From Escherichia coli (GTDB taxonomy: Bacteria > Pseudomonadota > Gammaproteobacteria > Enterobacterales > Enterobacteriaceae): a stretch of DNA of 64,000 nt. This document shows, piece after piece, positions 48,101-51,100 of the stretch (within the stretch, counting starts at the first letter, position 1; the number at the start of each line of letters is the position of its first letter). Made by a program: the position numbers. Location of the stretch: assembly GCF_030013205.1 (NCBI RefSeq), contig NZ_CP122648.1, one strand, 5' to 3'.

Positions 48101-51100
48101 TCTACGCCCAGGTGGCGGTTTACTCCGACCATTTCAGCCATGTTTCGGTGATGCGGAAAGTGCTGCTAAGAATGACCAGCTGGATGCATTATCTTTATTT
48201 GGATCATTGAGGGGGGCGGGGGAGATTATGGAACTTTGCTCCCTGCAAGGACTAATTATTTTTGCATATTATTTCATCGGCTGTGATGATTTTTCGTTAA
48301 TATCCATTATGTTAAGAAGTTCGGGATGAGTGTGAACTCATTGGATTTTTTATCCGTCTTGATCTGCCGAAGGATCAGACTATACATTGTCGAGATCGCA
48401 ATGATGATATGAGTTGTTCCTCTGCCACGGCTCTAATCAAAAAAGAGCAGGAGTGCTTTTCCATCTATTGCGATGATGGCTTTATTATCTGAAGGATGAC
48501 AGTCACATTTAAAAATATTTAATTTATAGATCACAATGTAGGTTCATGTAATATATGTATACAACTATTTTTCTCTTCACTTTTAATTATCGTATTCATT
48601 ATAACACTAAGTTAAAAAAACTCCTGGAGAGTGAGTTATTAATATGTTTTTAAATATAATTAAGTTATTATTCATCGATGCATTTTATAGAATCATCAAT
48701 GGCTACAATAGTACTATTAACTCTCCAATTTATATTTTTATTATCATTGCAAATATTAACTGAATCTATATCAATGATTTTTTTATTTTTATCTTTTATT
48801 TTGTTTACAGTTTCAATGCAATCAGCGACAAGTTGGTGTGGATTTAGATTCTTCAGATATGGTCTTATGATCTTTCCCTTGCTTAATAAATAGCATGTAT
48901 AGGATTCGGAAAGTCCAGCATCTATTTTGTACATCATTATTCTAGATAAGGATGTGAGAAATGCCTTGTTATCATTAGCAGCCATATATGCCAGTCCGAG
49001 TTCAGCCTCTGCGGCTTTACATGAAAAATAGCTAAGTGAACACGCTTTTCGTCCCTCTTGGGTACTGGCTGATATTAGTGCCCATAATATTGCCTTGTCT
49101 GCCAAATCCAACTCTCTCTGAAATTGGTTTACAGTAACTGCATTCGCAGAAATAGAGAAGAAAAGCACAATTGTTAATAACCTTGTCATATTTCTAGTCC
49201 GTCACTGTTAATGTGCTATCTGGCTCTGAAAATATTAGCTCATTTAATTTTTGCATGTCATTAGATGAACCAGTTATACAACCCTCGGAACAGAATCGAG
49301 GTCCTAAAGATGGACCAAAAGCGTTTAAACAACTATGTGTTAAAAATCCATCACGATTATACGTTTCTGTATTTGCTGACGGTACTAAACGTATACCATT
49401 AGGTTTTCTATTGGTTGCTCCAGGACTGTTAAGCAAGCCTCGTCCGGTTTGCTTCATTGAGTTCTCCACTTTAGACTATTGGACTATCTTTCAACATGGC
49501 ATCGCCTTAGTATACCGCTGGTTTTCCGCTCATTGTTAATTTTCTCTTTCGTTCATTTCACTTAATTTTCAGTTTTTTCCAAAAGTCAATATTCCCTTCT
49601 AATAAAATTTTTTCTATGGAATCTTCATTAATTTTATTATTAGAGCATATGACATTATCTTGAACGCCATATGACACCACCCCGTTTTTATCAATATAAT
49701 ATCTGTCTTTACCATCAATAATATAAATCCTAACATTTTTATCATCAAAATGGTAACACTCATTACTAGACCTGTTCAGTAACATTAATAACTTCTCACG
49801 ATTTATCTGTAATAATTTTTGTGCACCATCTTTTATTGCAAAATTTTCAATTTTACTTTTAGTGACAGGGGAATATGTTTGGATGCGAAAAGGCATCCTA
49901 TAATGGAAAACATCAGCTATACAGCAAGATGAAAAAAATACGGAAATAAAATACAGACATACTTTCATACCATCTCCTAAACTGGTGATATATTAAAAAC
50001 ATACCCAAAAGCAATATAAAAATGTTTAATATTTCATTCTTGCTGGCAAGCCCAACTCTTTACGAAATGGGTTTTCATATTTATCAACATTAGCCATCGA
50101 GTCAGTTCCATCGTCTTTCATTCCCTTTGCATGCCCCATTTCATGCGCAAGAACCACACTCAACAGAGTGGGTTTCATGGCACATGCTTTGTTTTTTCCT
50201 TGATATACACATGAGCTATGGTCGTTATCAATATCAATGTAAAAACTATATTCAGTATCATCGTAGCATGTTTGGTTTATGCCTTTTCTTAATCCTCTAA
50301 ATATATATTCATGCTCTGATGACTCTAATTCTTCTGTTATTTTATGTCCAAACTTTGTTTCTGCTACAGCTTTATATGCTTCTTTTAAAGTTTTTTGTGT
50401 ACTTTCATCTCCCTGAAAAGACACTTTTAACCCTAATGGATCGAAACCAGATACCGGATTCAACGGATACTGATAAAAATTCCATCCCCCCTTAAGCCCA
50501 ATCGGATCCTGAGTGATATACCGCCCCTGCAGCGGGTCATAATAGCGGTGGCGGTTGTAATAGAGGCCGGACTCCTCATCATACTGCTGACCCGGCAGGC
50601 GGATGAGCTGCTGCAGCTGGTGCGGGTTCTCTTCATTCAGCAGGTTGCCCCATTCATCGTATTCTGCGCACCATTCTGTTGCCCCTTCCGTGCTGACAAG
50701 CGCCAGCGGCAGGCCGCGATGGTCGCAGTGGTACAGGTGGATTTTTCGCGCCGGCGTGTACACCGGGTCCATCTGGTTTTGTATCTGCTCCACCGTCAGG
50801 CCGCACGATGCCAGCCAGCGGCGGCTTTCCTCACTCACCCGGTCAGCCAGGATTTCACTTTCCAGCCGGTCGAGCATCTGCACCAGCACCGGCGGGAACA
50901 CCATACTGCCACCGTCTTCACCGCCGGACTGCTGAAGGGCATCCGCCAGGCTGCGGCGCTGCGTTTTCGCCAGCTCACCGGTGGCAGTTTCAACTCTGAT
51001 GAGTGGCGTGAAGCTCCCCGGCTGATAAACCGTCTGGATGCGGGTTCTGTCGTTCTGTATTGTGGTCAGCCGGTCGCCGTCCCAGCCGTACCAGGTCACT

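Follow-up and report, generated by a model that had tools for sequence, protein, structure and literature searches.

An intact Imm57-family gene and the truncated remnant of its putative Tlde1-type toxin at the distal end of an Escherichia coli rhs locus

The window analyzed here, a stretch of 64,000 nucleotides of Escherichia coli DNA, contains an rhs gene that is separated from yibH by a short interval, in which a preliminary description had reported two small ORFs on the rhs strand and proposed that they might be an orphan toxin/immunity pair or its remnants. Both ORFs were recovered at unchanged coordinates in our ORF list, and the marked AT-richness that had been attributed to the interval is borne out by its composition (33.3% GC, whereas yibH has 53% and the rhs core 62%). 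Read along the minus strand, the locus comprises rhs, a 136-aa ORF, a 125-bp linker, a truncated tlde1 toxin sequence and an Imm57-family immunity gene (Table 1). The last two elements, which correspond to the two small ORFs, lie downstream of the full-length rhs and the 136-aa ORF on the same strand, with a GC content of 0.34-0.39 against 0.62 in the core. A remnant of about 230 bp of an ISAs1-family (H-repeat) transposase gene, matching a segment that is part of an annotated frameshifted ISAs1 transposase, separates Imm57 from yibH.

Table 1. Features of the yibH-rhs region (window coordinates).
Feature	Position	Strand	Evidence or property
yibH-rhs interval	48211-50025		GC 33.3%
ISAs1-family (H-repeat) transposase gene remnant	48275..48506	-	76.6% identity (E 3e-46) to L002 10768-11011
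173-aa Imm57-family immunity gene (RefSeq WP_000197506.1)	48668..49189	-	Pfam, RefSeq annotation, invariant residues
Imm57 codons 1-17, predicted Sec signal peptide MTRLLTIVLFFSISANA	49139..49189	-	Read from sequence; cleavage after A-N-A
87-aa ORF, 5'-truncated Tlde1/DUF2778 Rhs toxin tip	49194..49457	-	Pfam, ECONIH1 DNA identity, alignment
125-bp linker	49433-49557	-	Homology to complete modules ends at its edge
19-mer ATGAGCGGAAAACCAGCGG in linker	49515..49533	-	18/19 match to rhs start
136-aa ORF directly after rhs, candidate immunity protein of current tip	49558..49968	-	Position
rhs gene	50026..54156	-	ORF list
Current Rhs tip, DPLGL then 133 aa with HEMGH	50026..50442	-	Weak Peptidase_M91 match

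The current Rhs tip, which carries an HEMGH sequence, matches Peptidase_M91 weakly (E 8.6e-4). The 136-aa ORF that follows it is annotated as 'hypothetical protein', has a hydrophobic N-terminus and yielded no Pfam or NCBIfam match; for the two small ORFs, the NCBIfam scan of all four products returned nothing but sub-threshold noise. Scanning of positions 48100-50100 with Rfam identified no RNA family, and the repeat search revealed short AT-rich chance matches and nothing else. Promoter-like sites did not exceed their frequency in shuffled sequences, and a hairpin followed by U7 after Imm57, detected in the terminator scan and by RNA folding, scored no better than shuffles.

The larger of the two small ORFs exceeds every stop-free stretch obtained by shuffling the interval 500 times (maximum 151), and its 173-aa product matches the Pfam family Imm57 (PF15596; E 2e-44) over residues 30-127, corresponding to positions 2-100 of the 100-position model. 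In genomes with identical DNA, RefSeq labels this product 'Imm57 family immunity protein', so that at the annotation level it is not the uncharacterised protein it had been taken for. Alignment of homologues shows that residues D90, S94-E95 and C99 are invariant, in agreement with the conserved D, SE and C residues described for this family, which is also given as mostly alpha (Zhang et al. 2012, PMC3482391). The N-terminus, MTRLLTIVLFFSISANA followed by VT, presents on visual inspection a basic n-region, an 11-residue hydrophobic core and an A-x-A site, and a signal-like N-terminus is likewise seen in a homologue with 52-55% identity (P0198). The cleavable-looking signal peptide noted beforehand is therefore predicted to be of the Sec type. 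We know of no experimentally tested member of the Imm57 family.

The smaller ORF is open from a GTG codon (49194..49469, minus strand; 91 aa), with an internal ATG at 49457 that gives an 87-aa product. ORFs of this length are common by chance, as 157 of 500 interval shuffles reach 87 aa, and the reality of the ORF hence rests on homology and not on length. By itself, the product matches the Pfam Tlde1_dom model (PF10908) weakly and partially (E 1.3e-3, model positions 66-107 of 120), and PGAP leaves it uncalled in genomes with identical DNA. As described before, it contains cysteines and lacks a signal-like N-terminus; the cysteines are three, all at invariant positions of its family. Its codons from about 9 to 87 correspond to the last 79 of 145 toxin residues (54%), and the first eight or so codons, the ATG and the Shine-Dalgarno sequence (GGAG, with a 6-nt spacer) derive from the linker. 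In the alignment, H41 and S57-E58-G59-C60 of the ORF occupy family positions H104, S120, G122 and C123, and the segment from L87 through C123 is kept. Missing are residues 1 to about 72, including C8, C19, ASGNN, C48 and GPIPxG, together with four of the nine strands of the predicted fold (E7-11, E16-21, E31-36 and E66-70), and the ORF does not encode a complete YkuD-like fold. A search for a degenerate DPxGL remnant, which had been suggested as a check, was run over all six frames of 48211-50025 and found no D[PA]xG[LMI] pattern in any of them. Nor is there Rhs core sequence ahead of the truncated tlde1, where homology ends inside the toxin at 49432. As it retains only half of the fold and lacks an export signal, a delivery domain and a core stub for re-fusion to rhs, the 87-aa remnant is most likely inert.

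Complete counterparts of this arrangement define the relationship between the two ORFs. In the window, 4 nt separate the stop codon of the toxin remnant from the start codon of Imm57. At the same site, E. coli ECONIH1 carries a complete orphan module in which DPLGL and a 145-aa tip, named 'tlde1 domain-containing protein' by PGAP, precede Imm57; the DNA of the window is 99% identical to that of ECONIH1 from yibH to 49432 and shows no identity beyond. At the same locus in F2_81, a full-length 1392-aa Rhs protein has the same tip at its end, with the Imm57 gene coming next, and two distant metagenomic Rhs proteins (L009 and L010), with tips 50-52% identical, each have an Imm57 gene directly downstream. 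F2_81, L009 and L010 thus provide the homologues in other Rhs loci whose absence had been named beforehand as an argument against an Rhs-linked pair. The DPxGL motif is present in the modules of ECONIH1, F2_81, WL297 and K-12.

These associations agree with the reported linkage of Tox-LD-peptidase tips on RHS proteins to Imm57 (Zhang et al. 2012, PMC3482391). Effectors of the DUF2778 superfamily are toxic in the periplasm only and depend on essential His and Cys residues, their immunity proteins bear signal peptides, and Rhs-DUF2778 fusions exist (10.1101/2020.02.18.954545); a periplasmic Imm57 would therefore fit the site of action of the toxin. Taken together, the sequence evidence supports the identification of the two ORFs as a truncated Tlde1-type Rhs tip and its cognate Imm57 immunity gene. 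The original proposal of an orphan pair or remnants is accordingly supported: a truncated toxin tip is followed after 4 nt by Imm57, and only the immunity gene is intact.

To characterize the toxin family, we used the complete tip, which matches Tlde1_dom with E values of 3e-7 to 5e-7. An exhaustive search of 1.84 billion representatives yielded 228 relatives, in all of which the tip domain immediately follows DPxGL at the very C-terminal end; they include full-length Rhs proteins of 1378-1616 aa. Tlde1_dom is detected at E<=1e-3 in 28 of 35 diverse relatives (best 2.8e-12). The alignment shows G61, L87, H104, C106, C119, S120, G122 and C123 to be invariant, and the H104...S120-x-G122-C123 arrangement fits the published motif HXX14-17[S/T]HGCh (10.1101/2020.02.18.954545). 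Structure prediction, another of the checks initially proposed, was informative to different degrees for the complete tip and for Imm57. The AF2 model of the complete tip is confident (pLDDT 86.7, pTM 0.84), and the 17 top-ranking PDB matches of this model are without exception L,D-transpeptidase/YkuD-fold proteins, among them DpaA, Bd1075, Pgp2, Csd6 and several Ldts. Sequence searches of PDB chains gave no match for either the single complete tip or a 35-sequence profile, so that the tie to the solved Tlde1a structure comes from Pfam and the predicted fold. The Imm57 model, computed from a 5-sequence alignment, is all-helical and of low confidence (pLDDT 66.5), with no Foldseek match at E<=0.001, so our structural statement on this protein stops at 'all-alpha'.

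Among known systems, the closest is the Salmonella Typhimurium SPI-6 Tlde1/Tldi1 (Tae5/Tai5) T6SS pair of the DUF2778 superfamily, which shares Tlde1_dom with the tip in the window. Both families present an L,D-transpeptidase-like fold, predicted here, and a His...Cys catalytic motif, and both pairs combine a periplasmic target with a Sec-signal immunity protein encoded beside the toxin (10.1101/2020.02.18.954545). In contrast, Tlde1 is an effector of 173 aa in its own right, and its DUF2195 immunity protein is encoded upstream. The family described here consists of Rhs C-terminal tips with Imm57 downstream; it has a longer spacing of His and Cys (15 residues separate H from S), and its copy in the window is truncated. 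The complete modules share their architecture with the Rhs-DUF2778 fusions of the Tae7 family (e.g. Shigella sonnei WP_052983304.1; 10.1101/2020.02.18.954545) and with the Tox-LD-peptidase/Imm57 arrangement (Zhang et al. 2012, PMC3482391), in which an Rhs core, DPxGL and an LD-peptidase tip are followed by Imm57; in the window, by comparison, the Rhs core is missing and the tip is reduced to its 3' 54%. The module in the window also resembles the displaced Rhs tips described elsewhere (PMC2935791; Salmonella orphan Rhs, PMC7043789), being an AT-rich tip and immunity cassette left at the distal end of the locus, behind the current tip and in the same orientation. Typical orphan Rhs tips, however, keep a core stub permitting re-fusion, which this module lacks; it carries instead the 125-bp linker with a 19-mer resembling the start of rhs.

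The boundaries of homology locate the point at which the toxin sequence was interrupted. Homology of the window to complete modules stops at 49432 in the comparison with ECONIH1 and at 49424 in that with K-12. Within the adjoining linker, ATGAGCGGAAAACCAGCGG matches the first 19 nt of rhs (54138-54156) at 18 of 19 positions, and no other match to the linker was found in the window or in the compared loci. Among complete E. coli genomes, the linker occurs only in the 180 that present the arrangement of the window, namely the M91-like tip, the 136-aa ORF, the linker, the truncated tlde1 and Imm57, always in the same form; CFSAN061763 and MS 69-1 are two such strains. The linker is probably the junction scar of a tip replacement, and the resemblance of its 19-mer to an rhs start hints that another rhs start followed the donor cassette. 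The arrangement is consistent with the C-terminal displacement model for Rhs tips (Jackson et al. 2009, PMC2935791).

Comparison of the interval across the E. coli pangenome, which had also been suggested, located the module next to yibH in 3,647 of 5,426 complete genomes, K-12 included. The intact Imm57 allele of the window is a minority form (about 316 genomes), whereas 3,242 of the 5,426 genomes contain, at >=99% identity, a 99-mer in which the K-12-type 1-nt deletion disrupts the Imm57 frame, which indicates that in most E. coli Imm57 is under weak selection or none. The distal region of the K-12 rhsA locus by yibH (the yibV/yibU area) is orthologous to that of the window and 93% identical over 48100-49424. 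Unlike the window, K-12 has an Imm57 gene with two frameshifts, a toxin remnant that is full-length but divided among several frames, and, between the decayed module and rhsA, a further three modules (yibA, an Rhs fragment/yibJ, and yibG). The earlier suggestion that the content of this region differs from K-12 holds for these additional modules (yibA, the Rhs fragment and yibG), but not for the last module by yibH, which K-12 carries in decayed form and which is therefore shared with that strain and not replaced.

With the identities of the ORFs, the truncation, the pairing and the distribution of the module established, we consider it very probable that the two ORFs represent the displaced, oldest toxin/immunity module of the Rhs locus at the rhsA position, consisting of an inert toxin remnant and an intact orphan Imm57 gene. 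According to this explanation, the ancestral Rhs protein at this site would have ended in DPLGL and a Tlde1-type toxin of about 145 aa, a putative L,D-transpeptidase-fold enzyme attacking peptidoglycan stem peptides in the periplasm of target cells, and Imm57, encoded 4 nt downstream, would have been exported to the periplasm to block it. The M91-like metallopeptidase tip may then have arrived with its own 136-aa ORF and the 125-bp linker in a cassette that, in one event, would have replaced everything between the rhs core and the midpoint of tlde1, leaving behind an 87-aa fragment with the catalytic His and Cys residues and the intact orphan Imm57 gene. We infer expression of this gene, for which read-through from rhs is the probable route, and protection of the cell against Rhs-Tlde1 toxins injected by other E. 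coli; its most likely role is that of an orphan immunity gene against such attackers.

Evidence of selection bears on the possible, although less likely, alternative that both ORFs are neutral relics, with an Imm57 gene that has not yet decayed, is unexpressed (e.g. silenced in the AT-rich tract) and confers no protection. Estimates of dN/dS for Imm57 range from 0.13 to 0.40 between the window and other alleles and amount to 0.31-0.37 across alleles over 35-36 substitutions, values that argue against neutrality, but within the intact allele group the ratio derives from just 3-5 substitutions, few for measuring selection. Similarly, the persistence in about 316 genomes of an intact ORF that encodes the entire Pfam domain and a signal peptide is set against the wide distribution of the frame-breaking 99-mer and the more advanced decay of K-12, with its second Imm57 frameshift and multi-frame toxin remnant. 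Promoter and terminator signals that do not exceed chance are in line with unexpressed relics. Conversely, strains armed with Rhs-Tlde1 occur within E. coli, and orphan Imm57 genes are retained in poly-immunity arrays elsewhere: an Imm57 with 55% identity is encoded in the orphan immunity array of another organism, together with Rap1a, MafI2 and a second Imm57, which shows that immunity genes of this kind are retained where the toxin is absent.

A different view of the same alleles, which we regard as rather improbable, is that the intact orphan Imm57 has been kept by selection in minority lineages as a stand-alone shield against E. coli armed with Rhs-Tlde1 and that the K-12-type allele may still make a working immunity protein. 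Apart from its 1-nt deletion, this allele has an open frame of 169 codons from an ATT codon, and a working product, if real, would explain the presence of a full-length Rhs-Tlde1 beside an apparently frameshifted Imm57 in F2_81.

Preservation of the catalytic His and SxGC motif in the 87-aa ORF, its acquisition of a good Shine-Dalgarno sequence and an ATG from the linker and its position 4 nt upstream of its immunity gene could be read as signs of a functional orphan module, whose product would be an active small toxin or could be re-armed if it recombined with the main rhs gene, an outcome demonstrated for orphan Rhs tips of Salmonella. This reading appears highly improbable given the loss of about 72 N-terminal residues, which include near-invariant positions and four of nine predicted strands, the lack of a signal peptide in a family that is toxic in the periplasm only (10.1101/2020.02.18.954545), the lack of a DPxGL or Rhs core stub for homologous re-fusion and the fact that PGAP does not call the ORF. 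The notion that these are unrelated accessory or housekeeping ORFs that merely lie beside rhs is already refuted by homology and context, as the products match a toxin family and its published cognate immunity family specifically in Pfam, distant loci show the same adjacency to Rhs tips and no evidence for another function was found, with NCBIfam giving sub-threshold noise only.

The combination of a Tlde1 tip and Imm57 is a known, already annotated kind of module, and it involves no new mechanism. The main gain is a tidier annotation, in which the unannotated 87-aa ORF is explained as a toxin remnant and the yibH-proximal end of the rhsA locus is recognized as carrying one ancient Tlde1/Imm57 module, variously decayed, in two thirds of E. 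coli. If active, the orphan Imm57 would add to the immunity repertoires that differ between strains and determine the outcome of T6SS/Rhs contests in the gut.

The K-12-type change in Imm57 consists of a lost C and a G>A substitution beside a T7 run, in the region encoding the signal peptide. A phase-variable slip at the homopolymer was considered as its origin and rejected on account of this composite change and of the near-identity of the 99-mer among the genomes that carry it. K-12 also contains a 111-aa internal ORF (P0187), which, to go by its length, may be yibV.

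In E. coli F2_81 (NZ_CP043542.1), the comparison locus from this strain (L004, 6289-10993) carries a complete Tlde1 tip on a full-length, apparently intact Rhs protein. The adjoining gene for Imm57, the immunity family paired with Tlde1/DUF2778 Rhs tips, presents the same type of 1-nt deletion that breaks the K-12 frame and is annotated as frameshifted, leaving an open frame of 169 codons when counted from an ATT codon. Because of this deletion, F2_81 looks armed without canonical immunity. Furthermore, the toxin part of the F2_81 module is window-like and its immunity part is K-12-like, a mosaic of alleles suggestive of a recombination junction near the 3' end of the toxin gene.

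Imm57-like genes were also encountered on a metagenome contig (SRR31736489_25; L006, 5268-13170), where approximately 10 small genes are arrayed on the same strand, including two Imm57-like genes and genes for Rap1a-like, DUF7668 and MafI2 proteins. No toxin gene was called among the array genes, and the array therefore looks like a poly-immunity island.

In the window itself, the current Rhs tip and the 136-aa ORF that follows it form a cassette carried by only 180 of the 5,426 E. coli genomes. The 136-aa product yielded no match in Pfam or NCBIfam, and both members of the cassette are less characterised than the flagged 173-aa and 87-aa ORFs.

Features of the yibH-rhs interval and the current Rhs tip in the window
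Feature	Coordinates	Strand	Remarks
Current Rhs tip	50026-50442	-	HEMGH; weak Peptidase_M91 match (E 8.6e-4)
136-aa ORF after current Rhs tip	49558-49968	-	Hydrophobic N-terminus
Copy of rhs start (54138-54156) in linker	49515-49533		19 nt, 18/19 identical
Promoter-like site	48586-48615	-	TTAACT-18-GATAAT, just downstream of Imm57 stop
ISAs1-family (H-repeat) transposase gene remnant	48275-48506		Between yibH and Imm57

The 125-bp linker between the 136-aa ORF and the truncated tlde1 contains a copy of the rhs start, reading ATGAGCGGAAAACC(A/G)GCGG in direct orientation relative to the real one, with a predicted product of MSGKPAVY-stop. The promoter-like site following Imm57 faces the ISAs1 remnant. 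Among the RpoD-holoenzyme sites listed for K-12 in a genomic SELEX study (PMC3946193), one (yibV > yibU, TTAACT-15-GATAAT) may occupy the orthologous position. The ISAs1 remnant is conserved in ECONIH1 and K-12. In ECONIH1, a further ISAs1 copy, nearly complete and frameshifted, lies a short distance upstream of the orphan tlde1 module.
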